A DNA stretch of 56,698 nucleotides, from IMG/VR virus record IMGVR_UViG_3300042698_000010, positions 1-56,698 of that record. The stretch is one strand, 5' to 3'. Made by a program: the position numbers and the translations under genes. Shown in pieces: positions 32,983 through 55,344 of the stretch (positions are counted from its first letter, which is position 1; each line of letters begins with the position of its first letter). Below the pieces are notes generated by a model, which did not search any database, was not told where the DNA came from, and worked only from the letters and a program-made list of their open reading frames with translations. The stretch is from a virus. Lineage: Duplodnaviria > Caudoviricetes.

Positions 32983-33000
32983 CCCGTTCCCCGGCGGGGG

Positions 33001-38333: not shown

Positions 38334-39713
38334 TTAGCGCCCGACCGGCCGGGCCCACCGCGAACCCTGCCGCTGCGCCGCCTCGGGCCGCGCGGCGGCA
38401 GGGTTGTGCTTGCGCGGGGGCTCGTTCCAGTCCAGGTAGGCGACGGCGTACCGGCCCGCGTCCATGCTGTGGTCATGCAGCTTCAGCGGGACTTCCTTCG
38501 GGATGCCGTCGGGCCCCCGCTCGACGGCCCAGACGTAGCCGTTCACCTCGCCCAGGAAGCCGCGCGGCCGCTTCTGCTGCTCGCCGACCAGGTCCCTGCC
38601 CAGGACGCATCCCCTGAAGACGTACAGGCGGGGCTTCCCGTCGCCCGCCGGACGCATGCGCGACTGCATGAGCTGCACGCCGCGAGAGACCGCCTTGCGG
38701 GCCGCCACGGTGGGCAGCCCGAGGTGCTTCGTCAGCGTGGCCCGGTCCTCGGCATCGTGGTCACAGACCACCGCGACCGGCATGCCCTCGGCGTCGCGGT
38801 TCTCGGCCAAAATTTCCTTGATCCGCTTGGCGTGGTCTTCGACCAGGGTCTGTGTCTGGTGGATCTCACGGGTCAGGTACATCCGGCCGTCGGGGTCGAC
38901 CCGCCACCACTGGCAGACGAACGGGTTGCTGTACCCGAAGTCCACGCTCAGGATCAGCGGCCAGTCCTTCGGGATCGGGAACCACTCGATCGCGTTGACG
39001 TTGTCGCGCCAGTCATCGAAGACCAGGCCTTCGGCTGCGGCCCAGAGGCCGTCCCGGTAGCGCAGCCGACGGACGCCGGTGAGTGAGTCCAGGAACGCCA
39101 GGTAGTCGGTTCCCGCGTCGGTCCAGGTCCCGTCCGGGTTGCACAGGTACGGGTTGTCCTCATGCACGGACGTGTACATGCGCATCTTGTTGGACGCGTC
39201 GTCGGCGCGCTTCTTCAGCCAGTGGTCCGGGTGGTCCGGGTTGCACGCCGCAACGATCTGCTTGTAGGTCGCCGCGCTGCCGCGCAGACGGGTGAGCAGC
39301 GTCTCGTAGGCAACCACCGACACCTGGTTGGCCTCGTCGATCAGCACCCGGTCCAGAGACATGGACAGCACCTTGCCGGGGTTGTCCATGCCGCCGACCA
39401 TGATCATGCTGCCGTTCGGGTAGCGGTAGCCCGCGGGCTTCGACGCCGAGCCGCCGAACCACTTCACCTTCCCGCTGGCGATCTCTTCCGCCGCTACGAA
39501 CTGCTCGAAGGCGACCAGGGTCGACGCGGTCAGCGAGGCGTGCGTCTGGCGCACGATCAGCGACTGCATGCCGCGGACCGAGCTGCTGTCCGCATGCAGC
39601 TTCATCAGCGCGGCAGCGGTCTTGCCCGTGCCCGCGCTGCCCACGATGGCCACCTCGGGCCCGTGGTCGCGGATCAGGTCGGCCGCTGCGCCGCGGGCGA
39701 CGAACTCACGCAC
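38334..39713 (-). CDS. terL: Terminase large subunit
   Basis: Walker A GSAGTGKT, Walker B VLIDEA, ACNP, nuclease SVDFGYSNP and DHSMDAGRY. Confidence 0.92.
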   Translation of the reverse strand: MREFVARGAAADLIRDHGPEVAIVGSAGTGKTAAALMKLHADSSSVRGMQSLIVRQTHASLTASTLVAFEQFVAAEEIASGKVKWFGGSASKPAGYRYPNGSMIMVGGMDNPGKVLSMSLDRVLIDEANQVSVVAYETLLTRLRGSAATYKQIVAACNPDHPDHWLKKRADDASNKMRMYTSVHEDNPYLCNPDGTWTDAGTDYLAFLDSLTGVRRLRYRDGLWAAAEGLVFDDWRDNVNAIEWFPIPKDWPLILSVDFGYSNPFVCQWWRVDPDGRMYLTREIHQTQTLVEDHAKRIKEILAENRDAEGMPVAVVCDHDAEDRATLTKHLGLPTVAARKAVSRGVQLMQSRMRPAGDGKPRLYVFRGCVLGRDLVGEQQKRPRGFLGEVNGYVWAVERGPDGIPKEVPLKLHDHSMDAGRYAVAYLDWNEPPRKHNPAAARPEAAQRQGSRWARPVGR

Positions 39714-40191
39714 TACGGGGCCGCTCTTCCAGGATGATCCGGATGCCGCCGTTGCCCTGGCTGTCATCGTCGGCCTTCGGCGCCGTGACGCCGTTCAGCT
39801 TCGTGATGCTCTCGACAAGGCGGCGCGCCTCATCGACGGCGCGCAGCTTCACGGCCCGGTCGTCCGGCGTCAGCTCGTTGCCGTTCTCGTCATAGATCGC
39901 CGGGGCATCCGCGTCCAGCATGTCGAGCGTCTCGGACAGAAGGTGTTCCAGCCGCAGGTTCGCCGTGTCCCGCATCGTGTCCGCGGTCTCTTCGGCGCGC
40001 AGCGTGGCGGCGGCCATGGCGTCGCCGACGGCGCGCAGCGCTGCGGCCGGGCTCGGCCGCCCCTCGCTGTCCGTGAAGCCGCACTTGTCGGCGATCTCGG
40101 ACCAGTGCGCGCCGCGCACCCGCAGCTTCATGGCCCTGTCCAGCCGCTGCTGGGCGAGCAGCTCGGCGGCCACGTTGTCGCTGTCGGCCAC
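39706..40191 (-). CDS. terS: Terminase small subunit (HTH)
   Basis: AMKLRVRGAHWSEIADKCGF HTH; directly upstream of terL. Confidence 0.7.
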   Translation of the reverse strand: MADSDNVAAELLAQQRLDRAMKLRVRGAHWSEIADKCGFTDSEGRPSPAAALRAVGDAMAAATLRAEETADTMRDTANLRLEHLLSETLDMLDADAPAIYDENGNELTPDDRAVKLRAVDEARRLVESITKLNGVTAPKADDDSQGNGGIRIILEERPRSA

Positions 40192-40553
40192 GATGGCCCC
40201 CTTCCGTCGTGACCAGGGTATCGGGCCCGGACACAGCGAAGCCCCGGCAGCGGTTGAGACTGCCGGGGCTTCGCCGCGCAACCACCCGAAGGGCACCACC
40301 GGGACCGGGGCGGACACAGTCAGGATAACGCACGCATGGCACAGCGAAGCCCCCGGTCCGCCAGGATGCCGGGGGCTTCGCCGCGAGCGCGGGGGAAGCG
40401 CGTGCGGGCAGTACCCACCCTATCGCTACAGCCGTGGTGCAACCGACCGTCGCGGACATGTCATACACCATCGGCGTCCGTGGTGCAACAGCATCCGTGA
40501 TCATGTGCTAGTGTTGAAAGTCACGCGAAGAAACACACCAAAGGCGGTGTCCC

Positions 40554-42404
40554 GTGGCTATCGACCCCTTCCCCAGCAAGCGCAACGATCCTGCGTGGGC
40601 CGACTTCACCGAGTCGCACGATCTCACCCAGGTTCCCCGCCATGCCCCGGCCGTCCCGCCGGGCATCGACGTCCAGGCGATGATCAAGCTTGTCGAGCAG
40701 GCACAGAACGTACAGTCGGCGATCCTCGCGCCCGAGCGCGAGAAGCTGCCCTGGTGGGCGAAGCACGACGTGGCCAAGACGACGTACTGGACGCTGCTCG
40801 TCCCCACGCTGGTGACCGGCTGCGCCAACACCGCGGCGCACCAGTGGGGGTCCACCGGCCCCGCCATCACCGGTGGCCTGGTCTCGGCCGCCGCCACCAC
40901 GCTCGGCGTGGTCGGCCTGAACAACAACTGGCGCAGCCAGGGGTTGGCCGTGATGCTCGCCGGTGCCGTCGGCGGTGCGTCCTGGTCGGCCGCTGCGGCC
41001 GGTGGCGGCTGGACCGAGGTCATGGCGTGGCTGGCCGCCGCCAGTGCCACGCTCGGGTTCAAGCTGATCTGGAACCGGAAGCACGCCGAGTCGAAGGCGA
41101 AGGTGGCCCTCACCGAGGCGAAGGTTCGCACCGAGCTGGCGAAGGGTGACGCGGTCAAGTCGAAGTCAGCCATCACGGACTCACTCGGCCTGCTGCGCCT
41201 TCAGGAAATGCAGCGCGCTGCAACGGCCGCCGCCGCACCCGCGTTGCACGGTGCAACGCCCGAAGAGCGCGCGTTGCGCTGCGCTGTCTGGGACGTGTTC
41301 CAGGTCGAGCTGTACAGCTGCAACGTGCGTTACACCAGGACCGGCTACGTCGCAACGGTCGGCCTGCCCGTTGCGCTGTCGCGCAACATCGCGCACTCGG
41401 CATGGGACAAGGTCTCGTCCGCGTTGCGGGCCGACGGCCGGTTCGTCGTCACGGACGGGCGGCTGTCCAACGAGCTGGATGTCAAGTTCCTGGACAACGC
41501 GAAGGTGTCGACCGAGCCGCTTCCGTGGGACGTATCGGTCATGCCGGACAACCCGGCGCAGCTGATGAGCATCGGCGTGGACACCGAGACCGGTGAGCCG
41601 GTCCATGTCCAGTTCGATGAGCGCCTTCTCGTCTGCGGCGCCTCGGGCACGGGCAAGTCCTGGTCGACCCGGCCCATGCTGGGCCATGCGCTGATCAACG
41701 GCGACATGGTCATGATCGATGGCAAGGGTGAAGAGGCGAACGTCTGGTGCAAGGTCTGCCGCGTCGCGGTCGAAGCCGAAGAGATCGAGCAGCTGATCGA
41801 TGCGCTGCACGCCGAGATGAACACGCGGAAGGCCATCCTGGCCGCCCGCGGGATCAGCGTCTGGGACGGCCCGCAGCTCACCGTGTTCGTGGACGAGAAC
41901 CAGGTTGTCCTGTCCGCCATCGGGAAGGACGCCGGTCGGATGCAGCGCTACCGCGAACTGAGCAGCCTCGGCCGCTCGCGCGGGATCGTGCTGTGGATCG
42001 CCACGCAGAAGCCGACCATGTCCGGCTCGGCCCCCGGCATCGACAGCCAGATGGCGGGCAACTTCCTGAACCGCTTCGCGCTGCGCGTGGCGAGCGAGCA
42101 GGAAGCCCGCACGGCTCTGGACGACAACGCCTACTACGAGCCCAACAAGATCCCCGAGGGGCGCGAGTGGCGGGGCCACGGCTACTGGAAGGGCTACGGC
42201 CCGGCGCTGATCCGCACCTGGACGATGGACGACGATGCGGTCCGGCGGCTGCCGGTGAGCATCTGGCGGGGCCAGTCGGAAGAGCCGCTGGACGTCCGCG
42301 CCAAGCGCTGGCTGGAAGCCAACCCGGACGGCTCACAGCGTGCGATGGCCGCTGCCCTCGGTGTCCCGCGCAGCACGCTGCAAGAGGCCCTGAAGGGCCT
42401 GTGA
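40554..42404 (+). CDS. FtsK/SpoIIIE-family membrane DNA translocase (TraB-like)
   Basis: About 4 N-terminal TM helices; Walker A GASGTGKS, IDGKG, Walker B VFVDE, GRSRGIVLWIATQKP; C-terminal HTH SQRAMAAALGVPRSTLQEAL. Confidence 0.85.
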   Translation: MAIDPFPSKRNDPAWADFTESHDLTQVPRHAPAVPPGIDVQAMIKLVEQAQNVQSAILAPEREKLPWWAKHDVAKTTYWTLLVPTLVTGCANTAAHQWGSTGPAITGGLVSAAATTLGVVGLNNNWRSQGLAVMLAGAVGGASWSAAAAGGGWTEVMAWLAAASATLGFKLIWNRKHAESKAKVALTEAKVRTELAKGDAVKSKSAITDSLGLLRLQEMQRAATAAAAPALHGATPEERALRCAVWDVFQVELYSCNVRYTRTGYVATVGLPVALSRNIAHSAWDKVSSALRADGRFVVTDGRLSNELDVKFLDNAKVSTEPLPWDVSVMPDNPAQLMSIGVDTETGEPVHVQFDERLLVCGASGTGKSWSTRPMLGHALINGDMVMIDGKGEEANVWCKVCRVAVEAEEIEQLIDALHAEMNTRKAILAARGISVWDGPQLTVFVDENQVVLSAIGKDAGRMQRYRELSSLGRSRGIVLWIATQKPTMSGSAPGIDSQMAGNFLNRFALRVASEQEARTALDDNAYYEPNKIPEGREWRGHGYWKGYGPALIRTWTMDDDAVRRLPVSIWRGQSEEPLDVRAKRWLEANPDGSQRAMAAALGVPRSTLQEALKGL

Positions 42405-42522
42405 GGCGGTGGCCGGACACCCGGCCGGGCCCCTGCCGGAACGATCGGCAGGGGCCCCTTGCAGCCTCGCACCGGCCGCCCTGCGGCCAACGGTCCGGCC
42501 GCCCACTGACCTGCGGAAACGG

Positions 42523-42559
42523 CGAAGCCCCCACCCTCTCGCGGAAGGTGGGGGCTTCG
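42523..42559. terminator. Bidirectional terminator
   Basis: CGAAGCCCCCACC / GGTGGGGGCTTCG. Confidence 0.7.
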
Positions 42560-42565
42560 TCCTGC

Positions 42566-42874
42566 TCAGCGCTTGTAGAGCGACTGCCACAGGTCTTCCA
42601 GCTCGGCGGGCCACTCGCATTCGTTCTCGCAGAAGTCGACGTGCGCGCCGCACTCGCAGTTCGGCGCCCGGTGCAGCAGCACAACCTTCGCCCAGCCGCT
42701 TCGGTAGAAGTCACCGCCGCCCTTCAGCTCGACCGTGTAGCTGCCGTCCACGTAGTCGAGCGTCCGGACGACCGGGCCGTAGCTGGTGCCGTCCAGGTCG
42801 CCGACGAAGCGGAAGCGGTCGCCGAACAAAAGCTGGTTGAAGTTCAGGACGGTGCCGGTCGGGGTAATCGCCAT
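42566..42874 (-). CDS. Hypothetical protein with a C-terminal Cys cluster
   Basis: GAGAGGA RBS; promoter TTGCAC-N17-TAGCGT at 42910-42938. Confidence 0.75.
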   Translation of the reverse strand: MAITPTGTVLNFNQLLFGDRFRFVGDLDGTSYGPVVRTLDYVDGSYTVELKGGGDFYRSGWAKVVLLHRAPNCECGAHVDFCENECEWPAELEDLWQSLYKR

Positions 42875-42960
42875 GGTGTGTTCCTCTCTCGCGGTTGCTT
42901 GCAAGAGCAACGCTACAGGGCCGGGGCTGCAAGTGCAACCCCGGCCCAGGATGATGTACA

Positions 42961-43299
42961 TCAGCTGTCGTACCCGTCCGGGTCGCCAGTCTCGCAGGTC
43001 ATCGAGAGCACCGTCACAGACCAGCTGCGGCAGTCGTCACGGTCGTTCAGGCCCGCGTCGATCCACGCGTCCAGCCGTGACGGGATCTCGTCCATCGGGA
43101 TGTAGTCGCCGTGGAAGGTGACGTCCAGCGTGGCCCGCACGCGCTTCGTGGTGCGCTTGCGGTCGACCGCCGCAGCGGCCTCACGGGCCGCTTCCAGCTG
43201 CGCCGCCTTCTCACGGACGCGGGCTTCGTGGCGGGCGGCCCACTCGTCCCATGCGGCCGCGTCTTCCAGCGCGTCCCAGTCCACCGGCTCGAAGCTCAT
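42961..43299 (-). CDS. Hypothetical protein
   Basis: ATGA coupling, RBS GAGGA. Confidence 0.7.
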   Translation of the reverse strand: MSFEPVDWDALEDAAAWDEWAARHEARVREKAAQLEAAREAAAAVDRKRTTKRVRATLDVTFHGDYIPMDEIPSRLDAWIDAGLNDRDDCRSWSVTVLSMTCETGDPDGYDS

Positions 43300-43634
43300 A
43301 CCGGGTCCTCGCTTCCCAGGTTCATCGTCCACCGGTCGGTCTTGACGGCGATGTCCAGGCCGATCTTGCCTTCGCGGTGAAGCTCGTCCGCCAGCTTCAT
43401 GCGAACGGACAGCTCGGCCATGTCGCGGATCATCTCGTGCCCGTCGTACTGATGGGCGGGCACCGACTCACTGGCGTACCAGACACTCACGCCGTCGGTC
43501 GCCTCGGCGATCACCGTTACCAGGTCAAGCCCGGTGGCCAGCTGTGACACCACGGCCAGGTGCTCGGCGGCCAGCTGCTCATCGGCCGGGGCCGCCCCCT
43601 CGGGGGCGGCCTGGCTCTGCTGCTCGCTGCTCAC
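43296..43634 (-). CDS. Hypothetical protein
   Basis: GTGA coupling. Confidence 0.7.
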   Translation of the reverse strand: MSSEQQSQAAPEGAAPADEQLAAEHLAVVSQLATGLDLVTVIAEATDGVSVWYASESVPAHQYDGHEMIRDMAELSVRMKLADELHREGKIGLDIAVKTDRWTMNLGSEDPV

Positions 43635-43801
43635 GACTCGTCCACCGCACCGGCCGGACGGCCGTAGGTGACGTCGCTCTCGCGGACCGGCTGGACCGCG
43701 CTGTAGTCGACCTGGTGCGGCCGGTCGGTGGCGGGCTGCGCCTGGCTGCTCGCGGCCGCCTGCTTGGCCGCCCAGTCCGTGCCCGGCTTGTCGTCGCTCA
43801 T
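43631..43801 (-). CDS. Small hypothetical protein
   Basis: GAGAGGA RBS; promoter TTGCAA-N17-TAGTCT at 43833-43861. Confidence 0.65.
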   Translation of the reverse strand: MSDDKPGTDWAAKQAAASSQAQPATDRPHQVDYSAVQPVRESDVTYGRPAGAVDES

Positions 43802-43900
43802 GGTGCGTTCCTCTCGGTTGGTTGCTGATACAAGACTACAGCCCCCGCCCTCAAGTTGCAAGGCGGGGGCAGGTGGGGTGTCAGCGAAGCTGCCGAAGGC

Positions 43901-44101
43901 TCACGGCGCGTCAATCAGGTTGGCGGCCGAGTCGTGCGCGGCCAGCCAGGTGTTGTTGTAGGCGCTGTCGCCGCTGGGCTGCGGCATGCTGGCGCGGATG
44001 TGGTCGGCCAGCTCACGCCGGATCAGCGCGGTCGAGCACGGCCAGCGATCGTGGCACCAGATGCAGATGCCGTCGTGCTTCGCGTGGTCCATGGCAGCCA
44101 T
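43901..44101 (-). CDS. Small Cys/His protein
   Basis: H...CIWCHDRWPCST Zn-finger-like; RBS GAAGGGGG. Confidence 0.6.
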   Translation of the reverse strand: MAAMDHAKHDGICIWCHDRWPCSTALIRRELADHIRASMPQPSGDSAYNNTWLAAHDSAANLIDAP

Positions 44102-44114
44102 GTCGGCGCCCCCT

Positions 44115-44405
44115 TCAGTCGTTGTCGCGGTTGTAGCGCAGCAGCGCTCGGGCCACGTCGTCCAGCCGCAGCATCACGATGCTGTCGACCAGCTTCGGCA
44201 GCCGGTGCGGCTCGTTGGCCGAGAGCTTGAAGAAGCCCGCCCAGAGGTTCGCCCGGACGACCGGCCCCCGCAGCGCAGCGGCTTCGTCCAGGGTCGTCAG
44301 AGCCCGCGTGGCCTTCGCCACGATGGCGTTGTGCCGGATGTCCCAGGCCGGGATGTTCGCGGCGTGGACGGCGTCCTGAACGGCCGCGGTGATGTAGTCG
44401 CGCAT
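44115..44405 (-). CDS. Hypothetical protein
   Basis: GAGAGGA RBS; promoter TTGCGT-N17-TAGGCT at 44465-44493. Confidence 0.7.
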   Translation of the reverse strand: MRDYITAAVQDAVHAANIPAWDIRHNAIVAKATRALTTLDEAAALRGPVVRANLWAGFFKLSANEPHRLPKLVDSIVMLRLDDVARALLRYNRDND

Positions 44406-44486
44406 CGGGCTTCCTCTCTCGAAGATCTGAGACGTAGTCTCTGTCTCGCGGTTGCTTCGCTGCCAGCCTAGCGGTCCTGCCTCAGA

Positions 44487-44508
44487 AACGCAACACCCCG
44501 CCAGCAAC
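44487..44508. repeat. 22-bp terminator/promoter cassette repeat, copy 1
   Basis: AACGCAACACCCCGCCAGCAAC; also at 48740 and 53968. Confidence 0.85.
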
Positions 44509-44614
44509 CGGGGGGTTTGCTGACGGGGTGCTACGGGCCTCGCGGCCGTGGGGGGTACAAACCACCCTAGAGGGTGACGGGGTGTGCCAGTTACCGCGAC
44601 GCCTTGACGGGCCC

Positions 44615-45625
44615 TCAGTCCAGGCCGAGCACGTCGTTCGGGTGGTACATCGGGACCCCGTCGACCATGGTGTAGGGCAGCCGCCCGCGGTGCTTCAGCG
44701 AGCGGATCGTTCCGGGGGCGCAGCCCTTCAGCGCGGCCGCCTCGGCCGTGGTCAGCAGCTTCACCGTGGGGTCGCTGGTGACGGCCAGCTCGGCCTCGGC
44801 CATGGCGGCGGCCAGCGTATCCTCACGGTCCTGGCTGTGAAGCTGGACGCCGCGGAAGTAGTCGGCGATCGGCGCACGCGAGATGCTGCGGTATCCGCCG
44901 TTGTCCTCGGCCTTGTACGGCCCCTCAGACGCCTCGGGCGCAGCAGCCGGGGTGATGGACCGGGCAGCCGGTGCGGGGGCCACAGCGGGCCGCTCAGGGC
45001 CCGTGGCGGTACCGGCGAGCACGGCGGCCAGGTTGGCGTCCGCGCCCTGGCTGATCCGATAGCGCTGGATCTCACCGAGCTGGACCGAGAGCTGAGCGTC
45101 CGTGGCGGCGAAGCCCTTCGTCAGCCGCCAGACGGCCGCCTTGCTGAGCTTGCGGCCGAGCCCCTTGCCGTTGGCCGCGCGGTTCGCGTGCCAGAGCAGC
45201 AGGCCGCTGCGCCGCTGCTGCTCGATGTCGGTACCCGTCCGGTAGGCGACGACCCGGCGCGCGACGAAGGCGACGCCCTCACCGGCCGCGGTCATCGCCA
45301 GCGGCGTGAACGCCATGACGACCGCCTCGGCCGTGGTCGGGGCCAGCGCGATGCCGACGCCCGAGGCGGCCAGCGGCACCAGCCACATGCCCGCTCGGAC
45401 CGTGGCGGGGGTGTGCTGCCCCATGAGCGTGACGGCCAGCGCGACCAGTGCGCAGATGAGCGTTGCGCCCTCACCGGCGGCCACCAGGCCGAGGGCCGAG
45501 GCGCCGCGGTGAAGCACGTGGTTCATGTTGACGTAGGTGGCGACGGCGCCAGCAATGCCGACGGCGGCCATCGGGGTGGCGGCCAGCGCGAGGACGGCTG
45601 TCTGGCCCTTCGTGAGCTTCAGCAT
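44615..45625 (-). CDS. Spd-like multi-TM membrane protein with a C-terminal HTH_17 domain
   Basis: About 4 TM helices (LVAAGEGATLI, TPLAMTAAGEG), Pro/Ala linker, LLTTAEAAALKGCAPGTIRSLKHRGRL; architecture recalls Streptomyces plasmid spread proteins. Confidence 0.65.
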   Translation of the reverse strand: MLKLTKGQTAVLALAATPMAAVGIAGAVATYVNMNHVLHRGASALGLVAAGEGATLICALVALAVTLMGQHTPATVRAGMWLVPLAASGVGIALAPTTAEAVVMAFTPLAMTAAGEGVAFVARRVVAYRTGTDIEQQRRSGLLLWHANRAANGKGLGRKLSKAAVWRLTKGFAATDAQLSVQLGEIQRYRISQGADANLAAVLAGTATGPERPAVAPAPAARSITPAAAPEASEGPYKAEDNGGYRSISRAPIADYFRGVQLHSQDREDTLAAAMAEAELAVTSDPTVKLLTTAEAAALKGCAPGTIRSLKHRGRLPYTMVDGVPMYHPNDVLGLD

Positions 45626-45642
45626 GATCGTTGCCTCTCGGT

Positions 45643-45834
45643 TCATCGGTGGGTGCGACGCCGGTTGCGTGTGCGTCGCGGTCGGGTGTTGCGGGGGTGC
45701 AGCAGTGCGACGACCAGTGCGACGTTGCACGCGACACCGGTTGCGGTCCACGTCGCATCGGCCGGGGTGGTGGCGATCAGCGCCCAGCTCAGGGCTGCGA
45801 CGGTCCATGCGACGGCGTGCAACGGGCGCTTCAC
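45643..45834 (-). CDS. Small 2-TM membrane protein with a basic tail (Spd-like)
   Basis: RBS AGAGGGG before GTG; promoter-like TTGACA-N17-AACACT at 45909-45937. Confidence 0.6.
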   Translation of the reverse strand: MKRPLHAVAWTVAALSWALIATTPADATWTATGVACNVALVVALLHPRNTRPRRTRNRRRTHR

Positions 45835-46010
45835 GGCGGGCCCCTCTGCGTTGGGGACGGGCGGCCCGGCCTGTCGACATCCGGGCGGCCCGTCGTCTTT
45901 CTACTTCCAGTGTTGCACCAGCGTCGCAGGCTGTCAAGCACGGTGTTGCAAGAGGGCGTTGCACGTTGCGGCCCCTGTTGCAGTGTCGCAACGGGGGCCG
46001 TGGCAGCGTC

Positions 46011-46976
46011 TCAGTCCAGCGGCCGAGCAACCGTGGTGGTGACCGGCCCGGTGACGCCGAGGTGGCGTGCAACGCCTACAGCGGCCCCCTTCAGGCTGCT
46101 GCTGCTGACGCCGAACCCGAGGGTCGTCCAGCGGCCCCGCAGCAGGGCCACGGCCACCTCTGTCCCGTCAGCGTGGATGATGCCGACCGAGTCGCTGTCC
46201 ATCACGATGCGGACCTCGGTCACGGCGGGCGGCTCGGGCTGCTGCGCGGTCAGCGCCGTTGCAGCTGCGGACAGCTGCTCGGGCGTGAACACGATGCCCG
46301 CCGAGCTGAGGGCGGCCGCCAGGACGTCTTCCTCGGCGTCACCGGCGACTCGGGACGGGTCGACCGCCGGTGCCTCGGTGGTGCTGGTGACCGAGACGGC
46401 GGTGCTGTACTCGCGGGTCACGGTGATCCGGACCGTTCCGGCGAAGCCGTCGCTGCGGGCCAGGCCGTCGGCCGCCGCGGTGACCGAGCCGAAGCCGTCG
46501 CGGTGCCACATGGTCTCGGCGTAGGGGTCCTCGGCGTAGAAGCCCCCGTCGCCATCGGCGCCGATCAGGCCCTGGAAGCCGTCCGCGCCGTGGACCAGGG
46601 CAACGCCCTGGGTCTCGCTCTGCATGTCAACGCTCACCTGCCGGGCCTTGACCGGCTCGGCGTCGGGCTGCTGCGCCTCGGGCTTGGCCGGGGCCAGGTA
46701 GTCGCCCTCGCCGGTCGCGGGCTGCATGCTGGCATCCACGCGGTCCTGGTGCGCCAGCTCGGCCGCCTCTTCGGCCGCCAGCAGCTTCAGGCAGCGCTTG
46801 CAGTCGACATCGGCGGTGGTGACGTAGTACCGCTCGCTGGCCCGGTTGCCACCGCACTGCGGGCTGACACCCCAGCCGTCGTACTTGCGGGCGTAGTGGA
46901 CCTTGCCACTGCCGAGCTTCACAGCCACGCGGGTGAAGGTCTGGCCGCTGCGGTCGGTGTCCGTGGTGCCGATCAT
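46011..46976 (-). CDS. Hypothetical protein
   Basis: RBS GAAGGG; promoter TTGCAC-N17-TAGAGT at 47017-47045; KVH...C...VDCKRC Zn-ribbon-like N-terminus. Confidence 0.75.
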   Translation of the reverse strand: MIGTTDTDRSGQTFTRVAVKLGSGKVHYARKYDGWGVSPQCGGNRASERYYVTTADVDCKRCLKLLAAEEAAELAHQDRVDASMQPATGEGDYLAPAKPEAQQPDAEPVKARQVSVDMQSETQGVALVHGADGFQGLIGADGDGGFYAEDPYAETMWHRDGFGSVTAAADGLARSDGFAGTVRITVTREYSTAVSVTSTTEAPAVDPSRVAGDAEEDVLAAALSSAGIVFTPEQLSAAATALTAQQPEPPAVTEVRIVMDSDSVGIIHADGTEVAVALLRGRWTTLGFGVSSSSLKGAAVGVARHLGVTGPVTTTVARPLD

Positions 46977-47135
46977 CGTGTTGCCCTTCGTTCGTTGCTT
47001 CCTGCTGACAGAAGTAACTCTAGCCGGTCCTGCGTTGCAGTGCAACCCCTTCCCAGCAACGTTCTGATCCGCACGGCGGGCGGCATGCGACGGCCCCCGT
47101 TGCAGTGGTGCAACGGGGGCCGTGACCTGCGACGT

Positions 47136-47342
47136 TCAGAGCTCGATGCCGAGGTAGCGCCTCACGTCCTGGCGGACGTTCATCAGGGTCCGGTGGTCGC
47201 TCGGCGACTTCGCCATGGTGATGGACTGGTGGCCGTCTCGGCTCACCCGCCAGTGGCCGCCACCGGTGGGCCGGACGGTACAGCCCCGGCGCTTCAGCTC
47301 TCGCAGGATCTTGTTAATCTCTTTGTTCATGCCGACGCTCAC
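47136..47342 (-). CDS. hicA: HicA-like toxin (dsRBD-fold RNase)
   Basis: ILRELKRRGCTVRPTGGGHWRV...SPSDHR...NVRQDVRR. Confidence 0.7.
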   Translation of the reverse strand: MSVGMNKEINKILRELKRRGCTVRPTGGGHWRVSRDGHQSITMAKSPSDHRTLMNVRQDVRRYLGIEL

Positions 47343-47752
47343 GACGCACGCTCGATCCGCAGCGACTTGACTTCAAGCGCCTTGACCTCGCCCGACGGGC
47401 GGCACTGCTCGATCAGCTCGACCACCAGCAGAGGCGTGCCTTCCAGCTCGGCCACATCCTTGGCGTAGCTGTTCCAGCTGGCCTGGTGCGTGGTCACGTC
47501 GCTGACGCGCAGCTCACCGTTGGGGCCGGGCTTCAGCACCCGGTAGCCGATCAGCTTGGCGCCACGGCAACGCCAGGTGTGGTGGGTCCAGCCAGCCTGG
47601 TCCGTGGCCCCGTTGTAGACGTAGACCAGCTCGGCGTAGAACGGCTGGATCAGGTGGCTGACGTAGTCGGCCTTCATGATCCCGGCGCCGGTGAAGCGGG
47701 CGCGGACTGTGGTGACGGTGAACGGTGTGACCTCGGTCAGCTTGGCGACCAT
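47339..47752 (-). CDS. Hypothetical protein
   Basis: RBS GAAGGGA before ATG 47752. Confidence 0.7.
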   Translation of the reverse strand: MVAKLTEVTPFTVTTVRARFTGAGIMKADYVSHLIQPFYAELVYVYNGATDQAGWTHHTWRCRGAKLIGYRVLKPGPNGELRVSDVTTHQASWNSYAKDVAELEGTPLLVVELIEQCRPSGEVKALEVKSLRIERAS

Positions 47753-47823
47753 GGTGCTTCCCTTCGGGGTAGGGTCCTGCGGGGGATAGGGGCGGCCGCC
47801 GGTTGCGGCCGCCCCGTCGTTCC

Positions 47824-48675
47824 TCAGATGCGGGTCAGCGTGTCCACGAAGGGCCGGTTGCGCGGCATCATCCACTGACCGGGGGTCTCGTCCCAGTTGA
47901 CGCCCACGTAGGCCCGGCCGAAGTTCGGGTGGTCGGTGCTGGTGACGTAGGACACGTCCAGGCCGTTGACGGTCCCGGTGCGCAGGTTGCCCGCGGTGTC
48001 GATGCCGCGGACGGTGGTTCCCTTCGGCCACAGCGCTGCAATGCAGTCCACGAACCGCGCCTTCGACCCGGCGTCCGCGTTGGTCCGCTGGATCCGGCCC
48101 GCCTTCGCCCACGTGGCCACCTCGCTGTCCGCGCTGGCCAGCTTCCGGATGCGGTTCATCAGCGCGGCGGACGCCTCGCGGCTGGCGTAGACCACGTCGG
48201 TGCGCTCGGCCAGGTCCGCCTCGGTGATCGGGTCGGCTTCCATGTTGCGGCGGAAGGCGTCCTCACCCGCGGCGTAGCGGCTGCCGATGCGCTCGGCCAC
48301 GTAGGTGCCGTCGGTGCGGTCCTCGACCGCGAAGCCGTCGCGGGTCTCGACCACCCGGTAGCGCTCGGGCTGCGAGGGCTTCGGCTCGGCGGGCTGCGGG
48401 ACGATGTGGGCCGGGCCACCGGCCTGGCCGGTGAGGACGCGGGTGTCGTTGTTGTCCTTGTCCAGCTGCGCCTTCGCGTCCGCGCCCAGGTCGGTGAGGT
48501 CCGCGTACTCGTGCGGCGCGACCATCAGGCCGAGGCGGTACAGCCGTACGTAGGTCGCCGACTTGGCGTTCCGGGCGTGGTGCACCCGCAGCGTGGTCGG
48601 GCCGCCGTTGACGGTGTGCGTGGTGGCGGTGCGGATGATGTAGGCCTGGATGCCGCTCAGTCGGTTGTAGCTCAT
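47824..48675 (-). CDS. Hypothetical protein
   Basis: GAGAGG RBS; promoter TTGCGT-N17-TAGCTT at 48718-48746. Confidence 0.75.
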   Translation of the reverse strand: MSYNRLSGIQAYIIRTATTHTVNGGPTTLRVHHARNAKSATYVRLYRLGLMVAPHEYADLTDLGADAKAQLDKDNNDTRVLTGQAGGPAHIVPQPAEPKPSQPERYRVVETRDGFAVEDRTDGTYVAERIGSRYAAGEDAFRRNMEADPITEADLAERTDVVYASREASAALMNRIRKLASADSEVATWAKAGRIQRTNADAGSKARFVDCIAALWPKGTTVRGIDTAGNLRTGTVNGLDVSYVTSTDHPNFGRAYVGVNWDETPGQWMMPRNRPFVDTLTRI

Positions 48676-48739
48676 GGTCGTTGCCTCTCGCTTCGTTGCT
48701 TCCTGCTGACAGATCTAAAGCTACACGACTCGGGGCCGC

Positions 48740-48761
48740 AACGCAACACCCCGCCAGCAAC
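48740..48761. repeat. 22-bp terminator/promoter cassette repeat, copy 2
   Basis: AACGCAACACCCCGCCAGCAAC. Confidence 0.85.
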
Positions 48762-48801
48762 GGATGCTGACGGGGTGTTGTTGCACGTCTGACCTGCGGT
48801 G

Positions 48802-49047
48802 TTACGCCTGCTGCGACGGCTCGGGCTGCGCCGTTGCGCTCTGGCACTTGCCGTTGCAGTCCGGGCTGCAACGCTGCGACGCGTCGCGCGACGGCTGCGG
48901 CAGCGCGTTCCAGGAAGCCATGGCGCCCAGGAACGCCAGGGCCAGGACGACCAGCCACACCGCGATCGGCAGGCCGCGGAAGATGCCGAGGACGATCACG
49001 CACCATGCGCCCGTATAGCCCAGCGCGGCGATGTACTTGACGGTCAT
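48802..49047 (-). CDS. Small 2-TM membrane protein
   Basis: Two hydrophobic helices; CSPDCNGKC tail. Confidence 0.65.
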   Translation of the reverse strand: MTVKYIAALGYTGAWCVIVLGIFRGLPIAVWLVVLALAFLGAMASWNALPQPSRDASQRCSPDCNGKCQSATAQPEPSQQA

Positions 49048-49049
49048 GG

Positions 49050-49271
49050 TCAGCCCTTCTTCGACGGGGTGTTCTCTTCCAGCCACAGTTGCCAGCGCCG
49101 GTCGCGCCGCACCTCGGCCAGGTCCTCGGTGATGCACAGCCAGGCCACGCAGAAGTTGACCAGTGACAGGGCCGCGACGGCCCACCAGTTGCCCCATGCG
49201 CCGAACACGATCAGCACCTGAAGCCCGGCCGATGCGGCCGCGGTGACGCCGAGCAGAGTGCGAGCGTTCAT
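49050..49271 (-). CDS. Small 2-TM membrane protein
   Basis: ATGA coupling with the RuvC gene; hydrophobic. Confidence 0.65.
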   Translation of the reverse strand: MNARTLLGVTAAASAGLQVLIVFGAWGNWWAVAALSLVNFCVAWLCITEDLAEVRRDRRWQLWLEENTPSKKG

Positions 49272-49843
49272 GATCCGATTCCTTCCGGCCACTTGACGGC
49301 CAGCAGCGAGTCAAGCCGGGGACGTCCGGCGGTGGGCAGCGGCTGCCCGATGCGGGCGTAGCCCATGGCTGCCAGAGCGTAGGCGTCCGCCATGTCGTAC
49401 TTCCCGTGCGCCACCTTGTGCGCCTTCAGGTCCAGCCCGTGACGCTCGGCCAGGGCTGACACCATCTCTGCCTTGCTGGCCCGGCCGTTGCCCGTGGTGT
49501 AGGCCTTCAGGCTGGTGGGCGCGATCACGGCGAACGGGACGCCCATGCGCCACAGGCGGGTGCGGACCATGAGGCGCAGCCCCGCCAGCTGGTCGACCGC
49601 GTCGCCCTTCGAGCCGTAGGCCGCGCCTTCGATGCAAACCAGGTCGGCGCGCTTGCCCTCGGGCTGCCCGTCCGTCCACTGCGTGGGCGACAGGACGAAC
49701 ATCACGCACTGCCGCGTGAGGCGGTCAAGGCGGGCTTCCAGCCTCTCGTCCGCGGACGTCTGGAAGACGTGCACCGACTGGCCGTCGCTGACGCCGGTGG
49801 ACGTCAGCGACAGGTCCAGCCCTACAACGCGCAGCGGCCTCAC
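49268..49843 (-). CDS. ruvC: RuvC-like Holliday junction resolvase
   Basis: VVGLDLSLTSTG, VCIEG, PTSLKAYTTGNGRASK, DMADA. Confidence 0.88.
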   Translation of the reverse strand: MRPLRVVGLDLSLTSTGVSDGQSVHVFQTSADERLEARLDRLTRQCVMFVLSPTQWTDGQPEGKRADLVCIEGAAYGSKGDAVDQLAGLRLMVRTRLWRMGVPFAVIAPTSLKAYTTGNGRASKAEMVSALAERHGLDLKAHKVAHGKYDMADAYALAAMGYARIGQPLPTAGRPRLDSLLAVKWPEGIGS

Positions 49844-50277
49844 TGGTTCACCCGCCGGATCTGGTTCAGGTTCCCGGTCACCTGGTACGCGTCGGCCACG
49901 GACATGTCCACGCTGACGTGCCAGTCCATCCGGCGCCCGAGCATGTACGGGTGGATGGTCCAGGACCAGCCCGCGTCCAGCGCTGCGCGCACGTCGTCAT
50001 CGGACGGGTCACCCGCTGCGCCCAGCTCGGACAGCGTCAGGCAGGAAGCCGAGGCGCGGTCGTAGAGGGTGCCCGCGGTGTGGTCCGAGGGGACGCCCAG
50101 CGACACCATGGTCTCGGCGTCACGGATGTCCGCGAAGGCCACGCTCACGTCACCGTCGCTGGCGACGTAGCAGCCCAGATGATTGATGCCGAGACCTTCC
50201 AGCGTGATGGCCAGTTCCTCGGCCGCCACGGTGGCCAGTGACTCGGCACTGGTCCAGTCGTTGTCCGTCATGTCCAT
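49840..50277 (-). CDS. Hypothetical protein
   Basis: RBS GAAGGA; coupled to the RuvC gene. Confidence 0.7.
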   Translation of the reverse strand: MDMTDNDWTSAESLATVAAEELAITLEGLGINHLGCYVASDGDVSVAFADIRDAETMVSLGVPSDHTAGTLYDRASASCLTLSELGAAGDPSDDDVRAALDAGWSWTIHPYMLGRRMDWHVSVDMSVADAYQVTGNLNQIRRVNQ

Positions 50278-50319
50278 GTTCCCGTCCTTCGGTGATCGCG
50301 GTTGTCGCTGCTGCTGGTG

Positions 50320-50946
50320 CTACTCGGCCGCGGGCTTGCGACGGCGGCGCGCTGGCTTGCCACCGCTGTACTGATTGCGGCTGGCCTCGCGGTGCATCGG
50401 CTGGACGCCCGCCTTGCGCGCGATGCGCAGCACGTGGTTGCGGTCGACGTTGACGGCGGCCGCGATGGCCGACGGGCCGAGGATCTTGCTCGCGTAGACC
50501 ATGGCCACGGTACGGTCGCGCTCGGCGCGGGCGGTCTTGACCGCCTTGGCCGCCTCGGCCTGCGCCTTGTTGGCCGAGGCCAGCGCGGCCTTCGTCTCGG
50601 CCACGAGCTTCTCGTCCAGGGACCGGCCAGAGCTGACGCGGGTCTGCTTGCCCGTGGTCGTGTCGCCGAAGGCGGACCACGTGCTGTCGATGTAGTTGCG
50701 GTCACGGCCGATCGCCGCCGCCATGGCGTCGACGGACAGGACGCCGGTCGGGCGCACGCGCACGATGGTCTCGCGAAGAGCGTCGATAGCGTCTTCCGAA
50801 GAGGTGACCGCGGCGTCCAGCGCCTCGCGCACCTGGCGCAGCGCGGCGATGGCGGTTGCCTGGTCGGCCAGTACGGACTTGTTGGCCGCGGCCAGGCCGG
50901 GGCTCTCGGCTTCGGTCCTCATGGTGGCATTCATGGTCCTGTCCAT
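50320..50946 (-). CDS. Tandem-HTH DNA-binding protein
   Basis: Two repeats LSVDAMAAAIGRDRNYI and LGPSAIAAAVNVDRNHV, each after a coiled coil; exact start uncertain. Confidence 0.6.
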   Translation of the reverse strand: MDRTMNATMRTEAESPGLAAANKSVLADQATAIAALRQVREALDAAVTSSEDAIDALRETIVRVRPTGVLSVDAMAAAIGRDRNYIDSTWSAFGDTTTGKQTRVSSGRSLDEKLVAETKAALASANKAQAEAAKAVKTARAERDRTVAMVYASKILGPSAIAAAVNVDRNHVLRIARKAGVQPMHREASRNQYSGGKPARRRRKPAAE

Positions 50947-51031
50947 TCTGGTCGATGTTGCTTCGTCGGTCCATACTGGCATAGGTGAGGGCCGGATGCA
51001 ACAGTGCATCCGGCCCAGTCACAGCCCCTGA

Positions 51032-52870
51032 TCAGGCGGTCACGTACTTCCCGAAGCGCTCGTCCAGCGCCTTGCTGGCACGGGCCACGGCGATGGCGTC
51101 GGACGCCTCACCCTTCTTCATGCCCTCGGCCACCGCACCGCCCAGTCCGCGCAGCATCTTCAGCTGGCCGTCGCTGGCCGGACCCCGGCGCCAGCTGGCC
51201 TTCCGGTTGTTGTAGGTGTAGCCGGTGTCGGCTGCCAAGGCTTCCAGCGCGGCCACGGCCGTGACCGCATCGGTGGCGCCGCTGTCCAGCCGCTTGACGT
51301 CCACGCTGCGCCCCGACCCGCAGGCAAGCCCGTGGAAGAATCCGCCGTCCGGGGCGGGCAGAAGGAACACGTTCACCTCGTTGCCCACCGGCAGGAACTT
51401 GATCCCGGCCCGAGTGGTCAGCCAGGTGTAGCCAGAGCTCTTCAGCTCTTCGCCCAGGATGTCGACCTCGGTCAGCTTCTTCAGGACCGCGACGTCGACT
51501 TCCTTCGTCTCGATCTGGGGGCCCTCGCCACGGCAGTAGCAGCCGTCCGGGTTCAGCGAGCAGGCGCACGCATCCAGCCCGGTCCCGTCCTGGTCGCCGG
51601 GGCAGCCGCAGCCACAGTCCTCGGAACCGGCGCAGCGGCAGATGTTCGACGGCTTCTCGTGCTGCTCGACACAGCGGCAGCCGCACTGCCGGATGCCGCA
51701 CTTGCAGCGGTCCGAGCAGCCGCACGACAGGCAGTTGCAGTCACACCGGCCCGAGCAGTCGGATTCCAAGTCGTTGACACCGGCCAGGCTGTGCTTCAGC
51801 GAGGCGCCCGCGATGTCCAGGACCAGGCAGTCGCTCTTGCCCGACTCGGGGTGCAGCCGAAGCCCGCGGCCCACCATCTGAATGTAGAGACCGGGGTTGA
51901 GCGTCGGACGGCCGATGATCACGCAGCTGGTCTGGGGTGCGTCAAAGCCCTCGGTCAGCACCATGCAGCTAACCAGGATGCGTGTCTGGCCGGACGAGAA
52001 GCGCCCGTAGATGGCCTTCCGCTCGGTCGACGGGGTCGCGCCCGTGACAACCTCTGCCGAGGCGCCACAGACGGCTTCAAAGGCTTCCGCGGTCCGGGTC
52101 GCGGTGTGGACGTCCGGCATGAAGACGATCGTCGGACGCTCGCTGGCCTCTGCGCACCACGCCTCGGCAATGGCCGTGAACGCGTGGCTGTCTTCCAGCG
52201 CCTCGGCAACGTCCTTCGCGTTCAGGTCACCGGCGGTCACGCGGGTGGACGCCAGGTTGAGGCCCGGAACCTCGATCGACTTGGCGACCGGCGGCACCAG
52301 AAAGCCGCTCTTGATCATCCAGTGAATCTTCTTCGAGTACGCCACCGACTGCCAGACGTCGGGAAGCCCGCCGTCCATGCGGGTCAGCGTCGCCGTGAAG
52401 CCCACGGTGGGGGTGGCCCGGTCGTCCATGCAGCCGTAGTGGTCCAGGACCTCTCGGTAGGACTTCGCGGCGTAGCGGTGGCACTCGTCCACGATGACCA
52501 GGCCGATGCGGTCGACTGCCTCTCGGCGGGCGGGACGGGCCAGCGTCTGAACGGACGCCACGATCACGTCGGCGAACTGGTGCTTCTTCGCGCCCCGGCC
52601 GCCCTTGACGATGGCGGTCCAGACGCCGGGGACCATGGCTTTGATCTTCGCCTCGGCCTGTTCAAGCAGCTCTTCCCGGTGGGCCAGGACGAGCACCCGC
52701 TTCCCGTCCTTGCGCAGCTGATCGATGTGGCTGGCGATCAGGCCGCTGAAGCACACGGTCTTGCCAGCCCCCGTCGGCAGCACGACCACGGGCCGATTCA
52801 CGCCTTCAGCCCAACTGGCATCGACAGCCGCCAGCGCCTGTGACTGGTAGTCGCGCAACTGGAATCCCAT
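51032..52870 (-). CDS. SF2 DNA helicase with a Cys-rich insertion
   Basis: LRDYQ, LPTGAGKT, DECH, TAT, LTEGFD, QMVGRGLR; promoter TTGCAT-N17-TAGAGT at 52903-52931. Confidence 0.92.
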   Translation of the reverse strand: MGFQLRDYQSQALAAVDASWAEGVNRPVVVLPTGAGKTVCFSGLIASHIDQLRKDGKRVLVLAHREELLEQAEAKIKAMVPGVWTAIVKGGRGAKKHQFADVIVASVQTLARPARREAVDRIGLVIVDECHRYAAKSYREVLDHYGCMDDRATPTVGFTATLTRMDGGLPDVWQSVAYSKKIHWMIKSGFLVPPVAKSIEVPGLNLASTRVTAGDLNAKDVAEALEDSHAFTAIAEAWCAEASERPTIVFMPDVHTATRTAEAFEAVCGASAEVVTGATPSTERKAIYGRFSSGQTRILVSCMVLTEGFDAPQTSCVIIGRPTLNPGLYIQMVGRGLRLHPESGKSDCLVLDIAGASLKHSLAGVNDLESDCSGRCDCNCLSCGCSDRCKCGIRQCGCRCVEQHEKPSNICRCAGSEDCGCGCPGDQDGTGLDACACSLNPDGCYCRGEGPQIETKEVDVAVLKKLTEVDILGEELKSSGYTWLTTRAGIKFLPVGNEVNVFLLPAPDGGFFHGLACGSGRSVDVKRLDSGATDAVTAVAALEALAADTGYTYNNRKASWRRGPASDGQLKMLRGLGGAVAEGMKKGEASDAIAVARASKALDERFGKYVTA

Positions 52871-52905
52871 GGGGTTGCCTTTCTCGCGGTTGGTGTGGTG
52901 CAACT

Positions 52906-53475
52906 CTACCGAAGATCCGTAGATGATGCAACCCCGATACCGAGAGGGCCCGAGTACCAGTTCAGCTCTGAGAGCAGTAGCACCGACTTCCGGTTGTTGC
53001 ATGCCTTGTGAGTCGGTGCCAAGTTGTCCAGGCAGTGCGCGCCACCACGAGCCAGCGGAATGATGTGGTCCAACTGAATCGGACCTGCCAACGGCTTTCC
53101 GCAGAGGTAACAGTCAGACGCGCTGGCCATGACTTCCGCTTCGTTGACGTCCCCGATCGTTGCACCCGCCTTGACAGCACGCCGCTTCTGAGCCCCCTTG
53201 CGCGCAGCTGCGCGAACAGCTTCGGGATTGTCCGCGTACCGGCGTCGCATCTTGTCGCGGTTGTACTCGCGGGCCGCTTCAGGGTCGGACCAGTACCGGG
53301 CCCGCTGCGCTTCCAACTGCGGAACCGGGTTGTCCGCGTACTTCGCGCGGGCCGCAGCGCTCTTGCAGCTGCGGCACCGGCTATTACGGCCATAGGCGCC
53401 AAGCTTGTTAAGGCTGAAGTCGTCAAGAGGCTTGGCCTCATTGCAGCCGGTACAGACCTTGATAATCCCGTTCAC
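52906..53475 (-). CDS. HNH endonuclease (possibly homing)
   Basis: CTGC...CRSC N-terminus; CYLC...LDHIIPLARGGAH...N..PTHKACN; visibly lower GC; start uncertain (53475 or 53529). Confidence 0.85.
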   Translation of the reverse strand: MNGIIKVCTGCNEAKPLDDFSLNKLGAYGRNSRCRSCKSAAARAKYADNPVPQLEAQRARYWSDPEAAREYNRDKMRRRYADNPEAVRAAARKGAQKRRAVKAGATIGDVNEAEVMASASDCYLCGKPLAGPIQLDHIIPLARGGAHCLDNLAPTHKACNNRKSVLLLSELNWYSGPLGIGVASSTDLR

Positions 53476-53551
53476 GTCGGCTCTTCCCGAGAGATAACAC
53501 AGGATGCCCGCGGTTGCTGCCGCGGGCATCCTTCCTTCTGACCAGTCTACC

Positions 53552-53902: not shown

Positions 53903-53967
53903 GGTGTGTCCCTTCGTTGTGGTGAGCAACGTGCTCACAGGAAGAACAGTACAGGCTGCGCCGCGGG

Positions 53968-53989
53968 AACGCAACACCCCGCCAGCAAC
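53968..53989. repeat. 22-bp terminator/promoter cassette repeat, copy 3
   Basis: AACGCAACACCCCGCCAGCAAC. Confidence 0.85.
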
Positions 53990-54019
53990 TGTGGCTGGCG
54001 GGGTGTCGACCTGCGCTGA

Positions 54020-55298: not shown

Positions 55299-55344
55299 GG
55301 CTACAGACTACCGGACCTGTGGCCGTAGTGCAACTGGTACTGAG

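Follow-up and report, generated by a model that had tools for sequence, protein, structure and literature searches.

Comparison with known DNA-spread systems

In Streptomyces, plasmids travel through the mycelium in double-stranded form by means of TraB, Spd proteins and a clt site. A locus of similar layout, in which a dense array of the hexamer (T/C)GC(A/G)AC lies beside the gene of an SpdB2-like membrane protein, is described here in a tailed phage (Caudoviricetes; IMG/VR record IMGVR_UViG_3300042698_000010), whose record is hereafter called the window; it is complete, bears terminal repeats and comprises 56,698 bases (69% G+C). Its nearest named relatives were the Streptomyces phages of cluster BG (genus Woodruffvirus), namely YDN12, TP1604, phiSAJS1, Geonosis, Abt2graduatex2, Mischief19 and Xkcd426. 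According to PMC5511901 and PMC11536984, cluster BG phages are virulent siphoviruses with circularly permuted genomes, and plaques of Geonosis are reported to expand from about 4 to 38 mm2 (PMC11536984); a PHROG scan of the window found no integrase or repressor among 51 open reading frames (ORFs).

The clt loci of Streptomyces plasmids (pIJ101, pSVH1, pJV1 and pWTY27) combine clustered short direct repeats with an inverted repeat, and are found beside or within the transfer gene of elements in which Spd membrane proteins and an FtsK-like pump are encoded as well. The phage array likewise combined direct repeats (seven same-direction copies, 22 copies in total) with an inverted repeat (hairpin 45969-46000), and shared G(C/A)AAC words with the clt region of pIJ101, as this is described in PMC3583192. 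In pIJ101 itself, the interval 6824-6919, which fits that description, held seven G(C/A)AAC-type sites and three of the plasmid's seven TGCRAC hexamers; it is bounded on one side by a GntR-type regulator gene and on the other by an ORF of 80 amino acids (aa) that we take to be korB. The phage array differs from plasmid clt in that it sits in a virulent tailed phage, beside the spdB2-like gene and not the pump gene, is larger (~22 sites), uses both orientations, is partly written into codons, and accompanies a pump without a recognisable TraB-type winged helix. On sequence grounds, it is described as clt-like in layout and not as a clt.

SpdB2 and SpdB (pSVH1, pIJ101; DUF2637/SpdB_N) resemble the phage protein in their four-helix N-terminal membrane domain, with 41-50% identity between the phage protein and plasmid proteins, and in being encoded in an operon with a small gene near the pump gene. 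The C-terminus of the phage protein is an excisionase/BldC-type winged helix by its model, and the plasmid homologues that were matched did not align to it. SpdB2 of pSVH1 is reported to bind double-stranded DNA non-specifically, unlike the sequence-specific tail proposed here, and no pairwise similarity was found between pIJ101 SpdB and the phage protein. The occurrence of SpdB2 homologues on actinophages, and the speculation that they help phage DNA to spread, are already in print (PMC4447253). A precedent for specific sites written inside the coding region of an spd module is provided by SpdA2 (pIJ101), which binds sps sites within spdA2 (PMC4170104); as given there, and unlike the phage array, sps is a 12-bp palindrome in 2-3 copies, and SpdA2 is a soluble protein with a role in plasmid stability. 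Identity of sps with the array word was considered and rejected, as the amino-acid motif SRDD/E implies a different palindrome.

The modelled tail of the phage protein shares the small MerR-like winged-helix fold of BldC, Xis and RDF proteins. These proteins assemble on short repeats that vary in number and are spaced by roughly a helical turn, an arrangement comparable to that of the array. BldC is described in PMC5859096 as binding direct repeats head to tail as multimers; for cooperative binding of this kind in the phage, the phasing of the array at 10.75-11.25 bp would be indirect evidence. Unlike BldC and Xis, the phage domain is predicted to be joined to a membrane protein by a disordered linker of ~60 residues and, unlike that of BldC, its proposed word occurs in both orientations. 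Another likeness is found in RacA of Bacillus subtilis and its ram sites, in that a MerR-like winged helix, many GC-rich sites and the fastening of DNA to the cell envelope are combined; RacA differs from the phage protein in being soluble and reaching the pole via other proteins, and ram sites differ from the array in being 14-bp palindromes over hundreds of kb (see also PMC5859096).

A literature search found no paper describing such arrays in cluster BG (Woodruffvirus) phages and, as far as the searches show, the array, its phasing and the proposed sequence-specific tail are new. With a conserved phased array and an adjoining candidate tail, the idea of phage-DNA spread can be tied to a defined cis element and a possible reader; if true, this would also be an example from nature of a BldC/Xis-type domain that functions when fixed to a membrane.

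A dense and conserved hexamer array upstream of the SpdB2-like gene

The original prediction had placed the densest YGCRAC array of the genome, with about 20 copies, at 45654-46075, and the counts bore this out. In total, 22 hexamers were present (TGCAAC, 2; TGCGAC, 5; GTTGCA, 5; GTCGCA, 3; CGCAAC, 1; CGCGAC, 1; GTTGCG, 4; GTCGCG, 1). The 15 copies of the four T-type hexamers (TGCRAC/GTYGCA) compared with 6, 6, 5, 5 and 5 in the next densest windows of the same size (422 bp), and with a mean of 3.8 and a maximum of 6 in the densest 422-bp window of 200 third-order Markov simulations. Inside the array region, GTCGCA (8 vs 0.34), GTTGCA (7 vs 0.38) and CGTGCAAC (4 vs 0.03) all exceeded the numbers expected from the rest of the genome. 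Among the 23 oriented GCRAC cores between 45640 and 46080, T preceded the core in 65% (17% elsewhere), and G or A followed it in 86% (58% elsewhere), so that the word is closer to TGCRAC(G/A). Seven copies ran in the same direction from the hairpin to the -10 element of the operon promoter; overall, the sites had no strand polarity, both orientations being used, and inverted pairs were spaced variably (0, 1, 3 and 4 nt).

Because a coding sequence may impose such words through its protein, synonymous codons were resampled using the phage's own codon usage. The 63-aa gene within the array held 8 T-type hexamers against 1.26 ± 0.68 under recoding, and 13 against 4.29 when all eight hexamers were counted; none of 5000 samples was as high in either case. 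The excess arose from GTC-GCA (Val-Ala) pairs, GCA accounting for 6.9% of Ala codons. Across the 51 ORFs (200 samples each), P ≤ 0.01 was obtained for two, the small gene and the FtsK-like pump gene; the latter held 6 T-type hexamers against 1.9-2.0, with 5 against 1.11 in the sub-region 41178-41396 (0 of 2000 recodings reached 5). Outside the 51, the ORF at 48802-49050 (4 vs 1.26; P = 0.001) and the tail-region gene 16109-16492 (Table 1) also exceeded expectation. In YDN12, where the 20 of 70 coding sequences with at least two copies were recoded, P ≤ 0.01 was found for gp25 (22596-23120; 4 vs 0.48), the SpdB2-like gene, the FtsK-like gene (7 vs 0.68) and three others; gp25 is the orthologue of the window's tail-region gene. 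As recoding rejects protein-imposed copies, the word is under DNA-level selection at a small number of sites; these include the tail-region gene, and the word therefore extends beyond the spread genes.

Conservation was assessed in 18 loci: the window, four GenBank phages and 13 IMG/VR loci, three of the latter being copies of named phages and some loci near-duplicates. Compared loci bear L-numbers (L002, phiSAJS1; L006, Xkcd426; L023, pIJ101), and the SpdB2-like proteins of L011 and L015 were 68% and 52% identical to that of the window. Within 700 bp upstream of the orthologous gene, the top enriched words nearly always belonged to the GTCGCA, CGTTGC, CGCAAC and GTTGCA family, the clearest exception being Xkcd426; three other loci had a different top word. 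The densest 422-bp window of a locus lay 300-760 bp upstream of the SpdB2-like gene in 11 of the 18 loci, 1.8-2.6 kb downstream of the gene start in six and elsewhere in one; in two of those six, YDN12 and Xkcd426, the downstream window was inside the FtsK-like gene. The array of the window was the densest of all 18, the equivalent region of YDN12 holding five copies, and the array was kept at the matching locus while the flanks diverged. Word density was 2.5-4.8 per kb in seven phage loci and 1.9-3.9 per kb in later IMG/VR loci, compared to 0.4 per kb in two plasmid loci. In phiSAJS1, the spdB2-like gene (2501-3453 of L002) was annotated as two ORFs, gp74 and gp75, split past about residue 160, which could reflect frameshifting or an error in sequencing; the split gene still had a dense upstream array (13 copies in 700 bp).

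The sites were also helically phased. In the window, site centres gave a spectral peak at 11.0-11.25 bp, with P values, after scanning 7-16 bp, of 0.039 for all 23 sites, 0.012 for the 13 ORF sites and 0.10 for the 8 promoter-near sites. For 14 relatives, the mean spectrum of the 600 bp preceding the orthologous gene peaked at 10.75 bp with a power of 2.96, compared to a maximum of 2.44 in 500 random-placement controls, and single-locus peaks fell at 10.0-10.75 bp in 8 of the 14; as several of these loci are close kin (YDN12 group), they do not count as 14 independent samples. Two-site units with 12-bp spacing recurred.

Table 1. Positions of the array, its control module and further word-bearing or putative DNA-binding features in the window.
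Feature	Position	Strand	Remarks
Array	45654-46075	none	22 YGCRAC/GTYGCR hexamers, 15 T-type; refined consensus T-GC-R-AC-(G/A)
GC-rich hairpin	45969-46000	-	Just past the stop of gene 46011-46976; stem carries GTTGC/GCAAC; terminator-like
Sigma-70-type promoter (pattern scan)	45909-45937	-	TTGACA 45937-45932, 17-nt spacer, AACACT 45914-45909
5' leader stem-loop of small gene	45856-45894	-	Long inverted repeat
Small gene, 63 aa	45643-45834	-	GTG start at 45834, AGAGGGG ribosome-binding site, two hydrophobic segments
SpdB2/DUF2637-like membrane protein, 336 aa	44615-45625	-	phrog_16651; start 18 bp past the small gene
C-terminal winged helix	~44618-44758	-	BldC/Xis-like fold model
Twin module upstream	47017-47122	-	Hairpin 47091-47122, then promoter TTGCAC-N17-TAGAGT 47045-47017
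FtsK/TraB-like translocase gene	40554-42404	+	PF01580, phrog_17958; embedded word cluster 41219-41387
Tail-region gene, 127 aa	16109-16492	-	DNA-level word copies, 6 vs 0.46; 0/2000 recodings reach 6
Intergenic hairpin with direct YGCAAC run	21039-21095	-	Between major-tail and head-tail-adaptor genes
71-aa HTH_17 protein	4854-5069		63% identical to YDN12 gp47
GerE-type protein	10385-10708

Organisation of the control module

The array stretch is a composite of a terminator-like hairpin, a promoter, a structured leader and the 63-aa two-helix gene. On the minus strand, the end of gene 46011-46976 was followed in order by the hairpin, the promoter, the leader hairpin, a ribosome-binding site, the 63-aa ORF and the 336-aa gene. 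The first hairpin folded at -24.5 kcal/mol (z = -4.35) and, as had been noted from the sequence, was nearly identical to that of the twin module: the two share the core CACGGCCCCCGTTGC..CACTGCAAC.GGGGCCG, the twin also folds stably (-32.8 kcal/mol), and exact matches to the arms were found in these two places only. The first hairpin has no U-tract after it, although its stem is itself stable; neither it nor its twin was listed by a terminator scan of 40000-56698. Hairpins without a U-tract can terminate transcription in actinobacteria.

A TTGACA-N17-AACACT promoter had likewise been proposed within the array; it was found there, and recurred in L011 and L015. TGC directly precedes its -10 element, a TGCGAC lies within the spacer and a TGCAAC overlaps the -10; the -10 block GTGCAACACT was present in phiSAJS1 and Mischief19 too. 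A strict-consensus scan of 40000-56698 returned no promoter, and the promoter calls come from a looser pattern scan. In phiSAJS1, GTTGCAtTGCAAC was observed at a promoter ahead of its spdB2-like gene. A 13-bp palindrome, GTTGCAcTGCAAC, overlapped the -35 hexamer of two candidate promoters of the window (47034-47046 and 33000-33012).

The leaders of eight phages (the window, L011 5769-5839, L015 5715-5786, L012, L014, L022, L006 and L003) all folded, when taken one sequence at a time, into a hairpin at the matching place. As the stem sequences differ among the eight, it is the structure of the leader that is conserved and not its sequence; RNAalifold on a MAFFT alignment of these eight leaders gave no useful consensus (-3.3 kcal/mol). 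The stem-loop could be an mRNA-stabilising or attenuating element. In all eight phages, it begins about 15 nt past the -10 element.

The 63-aa ORF, with a third-position G+C content of 0.80, is counted on comparative grounds as a real gene, because L011 encodes a homologous 54-aa protein behind the same promoter and leader, and L015 has kept a small ORF together with the promoter and leader hairpin.

The SpdB2-like protein and its winged-helix tail

The operon had been called spd-like, which agreed with the matches of its larger protein. Residues 1-206 to 1-210 matched 35 plasmid records at 42-50% identity, among them "conjugal transfer" proteins of Streptomyces plasmids, and one pairwise comparison with a plasmid homologue gave 41% identity (E = 5e-34). 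The plasmid homologues bear the name "conjugal transfer protein" only sometimes; they lie in operons downstream of a GntR-type regulator, and on one plasmid the homologue stands just ahead of a large ORF. In a Pfam scan of the protein, DUF2637 (PF10935) remained sub-threshold (13.9 bits vs a cut-off of 22.8; E = 0.051) and SpdB_N gave no match, while the nearest ESM Atlas clusters were DUF2637 (best, 0.93) and SpdB_N. These cluster and sub-threshold matches are leads, not proof.

The further claim that the protein is membrane-anchored with a helix-turn-helix (HTH) domain is consistent with its full-length model, which comprises four long N-terminal helices (6-38, 41-67, 74-94 and 98-130), further helices to residue 203, a predicted disordered linker of ~60 residues (206-263; pLDDT below 50) and a confident C-terminal domain modelled as a winged helix. 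No alignment of the plasmid homologues to this tail was found. Across 13 related loci and a 41-sequence alignment, the tail was near-invariant, almost residue for residue, and its recognition helix, PGTVRSW(K/V)xRGKL, was almost invariant down to 51% overall identity.

Modelled alone, the tail reached a pLDDT of 78 (~90 over the domain), with helices at 23-30 and 34-42 and strands at 48-51 and 54-57, and showed the three helices and two-strand wing of the fold. The top PDB entries in a fold search were 6ama, 6amk and 4j2n (TM-score 0.60-0.63 on the query, 0.68-0.76 on the target); the first two are BldC-DNA complexes, to which the tail model was 30% identical with a root-mean-square deviation of 1.5 Å. 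After BldC came the Xis of mycobacteriophage Pukovnik, MerR N-terminal domains, RdfS and RacA (ranks 23 and 28). By sequence, TIGR01764 scored 19.6 bits vs a cut-off of 28.8, and many homologues carry a precomputed PF12728 match; a search of the tail against PDB sequences returned nothing but a sigma region-4 chain (E = 0.32).

Distribution of the word in the genome

The motif had been described as genome-wide, and in this respect the prediction did not hold. Across the whole window, 104 GTYGCA copies were counted against 88.3 ± 9.0 in dinucleotide shuffles, 5 of 100 of which reached 104; the third-order Markov expectation was 72 ± 9, and 89 copies were left without the 15 of the array. Part of the apparent genome-wide motif is promoter consensus, TTGCAN being the -35 element, and another part comes from terminator stems.

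At 21039-21095, the word occurs in the hairpin stem and then in several direct YGCAAC copies, of which three are 9 bp apart, and YDN12 has a syntenic cluster at 17546-17967. In the tail and structural genes at 16492-21817, word counts matched the recoding expectation, and a KOPS-like interpretation of the strand-block pattern of the word was rejected, this pattern being read as coding-imposed. Just past the GerE-type gene, four copies at 10720-10815 read as in-frame Cys codons.

A smaller cluster lies inside the pump gene, which is itself 3.2 kb from the main array. In all five phages compared, the FtsK-like genes carried word clusters in the stretch that separates the membrane part from the ATPase, and at some sites the word persists despite an A/G change or an Asn/Asp change. 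These genes occur in two forms, on the opposite strand with a short HTH (window, Mischief19) or on the same strand with a TraB/Tra-like winged helix; the latter is established for YDN12 (54424-56484), the Abt2graduatex2 and Xkcd426 genes being truncated ahead of the C-terminus in the loci compared.

Proposed reading of the array and alternatives

From the array, its selection at the DNA level, its phasing and its conservation, together with the architecture and fold of the adjoining protein, we infer, at a probability of about 0.4, a docking array of clt-like layout, read by the SpdB2-like tail and serving both autoregulation and membrane tethering. An ordinary intergenic control module would have been overwritten with ~22 copies of (T/C)GC(A/G)AC, about one helical turn apart, as docking sites for the sequence-specific protein of a plasmid-derived DNA-spread module made up of the small membrane protein, the SpdB2-like membrane protein and the FtsK/TraB-like pump. 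The BldC/Xis-like tail would be the reader, its monomers sitting side by side on one DNA face; the original prediction had already named the HTH protein as the best candidate reader, a view that the analysis supports in part. Occupied spacer and -10 sites would shut the operon's own promoter, and the phage genome would be kept next to the pump, at the septum or membrane, as the phage counterpart of clt-TraB-Spd plasmid spreading. The tail is favoured as reader because tail and word are both invariant, its gene adjoins the array, and its fold class binds arrays; autoregulation appears plausible from the placement of sites in the promoter spacer and over the -10. A bolder version, which we consider doubtful, is that this virulent phage transfers its genome as naked DNA, with no virions involved, from one hyphal compartment to another, the array being its own clt: the BldC-like tails would form polymers along the phased array and minor clusters and dock the DNA at septal cross-walls, from where it would be passed to the FtsK/TraB-like pump, so that infection would spread through the mycelium ahead of lysis.

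Several observations weigh against the tail as reader of a spread-module array. The fold-match E-values of the tail were weak (0.01 and worse), because the domain is small, its Pfam HTH_17 score was below the cut-off (18.8 vs 27 bits), and BldC reads AT-rich repeats whereas the array word is GC-rich. At least four other DNA-binding candidates are encoded, namely the FtsK-like C-terminus, the 71-aa HTH_17 protein, and GerE-type and WhiB-like proteins, and at least eight candidate promoters have GTTGCA as their -35 element, often accompanied by another copy close to it. Word clusters also occur without an obvious role in spread (the tail-region gene and intergenic 21039-21095). In YDN12, the orthologous small gene has no T-type copy, and the densest window is in the FtsK-like gene and not in the upstream array. 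Finally, the pIJ101 clt region (6824-6919) holds the same words, and the C-terminal winged helix of the YDN12-type pump aligns to pIJ101 Tra (24% identity; E = 2e-5, pairwise).

The last two points would fit an array that is a true clt, that is, a pump loading site read by the pump's C-terminal HTH, with the SpdB2-like tail binding other DNA or DNA in general. The cluster embedded in the pump gene of all five phages, with its excess under recoding in both the window and YDN12, is in line with this, as is the published organisation of clt, given in PMC3583192 and PMC4447253 as direct repeats of 5-9 bp, sometimes accompanied by an inverted repeat, to which TraB or TraA binds, and for pIJ101 as an inverted repeat with three 5-bp G(C/A)AAC repeats (PMC3583192). 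We nevertheless regard a pump-read clt as unlikely. The pump of the window ends in a shorter HTH, and comparison of its C-terminus with the pIJ101 Tra winged helix detected no similarity, which weakens the pump as reader in this phage; the recognition helices of the two pump types differ (PRSTLQEALKGL vs SKSVVKRRLDQM) whereas the word is identical in both pump groups; the sites are without strand polarity; and the main array stands well away from the pump gene.

Alternatively, the words could be operators of a soluble phage regulator timing early transcription genome-wide, the array being its strongest target; the 71-aa HTH_17 protein, conserved in YDN12 as gp47, the GerE-type protein and a WhiB-like protein are the candidates. 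Words at many promoters, with GTTGCA as -35 and a second copy in the spacer or just past the -10, the palindrome GTTGCAnTGCAAC at 47046-47034 and 33000-33012, the clusters at syntenic intergenic places in YDN12, and the higher density outside the 51 ORFs than inside (4.0 vs 1.14 per kb) all speak for such a protein. It would, however, leave the dense phased coding copies in the small, pump and tail genes unexplained; no array adjoins any candidate regulator gene, the copies behind the GerE-type gene reading as Cys codons, and inverted pairs 0, 1, 3 or 4 nt apart are unfit for a rigid dimer. A soluble regulator in place of the SpdB2-like tail is accordingly judged improbable.

That the array has no dedicated reader and is a by-product of duplicated terminator-promoter cassettes and of Val-Ala, Cys-Asp and Arg-Asn codon pairs is very unlikely and already disfavoured: the near-copy hairpins, the recurrence of cassette-like leaders, the clusters that look coding-imposed (16492-21817, 10720-10815) and a genome total near the dinucleotide expectation agree with it, but recoding rejects it for the small gene (0/5000), and neither the helical phasing common to relatives nor the retention of the array despite divergence of the flanks is accounted for. 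A replication origin (iterons) or headful-packaging pac site, which would share the clustered short repeats and suit the circularly permuted genomes of cluster BG (PMC5511901), is the most improbable of all, as ~5.3 kb separate the array from the putative small-terminase gene (39706-40317), the primase and helicase genes are far away, GC and AT skew give no origin signal, and the second and third clusters are located elsewhere.

Other features of the window

A leader of the form (A)TCAGCA..GCAACC..GAGAGG..AAC recurred before the start codon of at least eight genes (starting at about 46976, 44408, 43800, 42860, 52870, 33065, 48675 and 4200); it contains AGCAAC, which is outside the YGCRAC count, and is similar to the "start-associated sequences" known from some mycobacteriophages. 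Two copies of CCGTGGTGCAAC, 46 bp apart, were present where the putative small-terminase operon and the FtsK-like gene diverge (40430-40495). A small HicA-like ORF was found on the minus strand at 47136-47342, and its copies in relatives are named HicA-like toxin.

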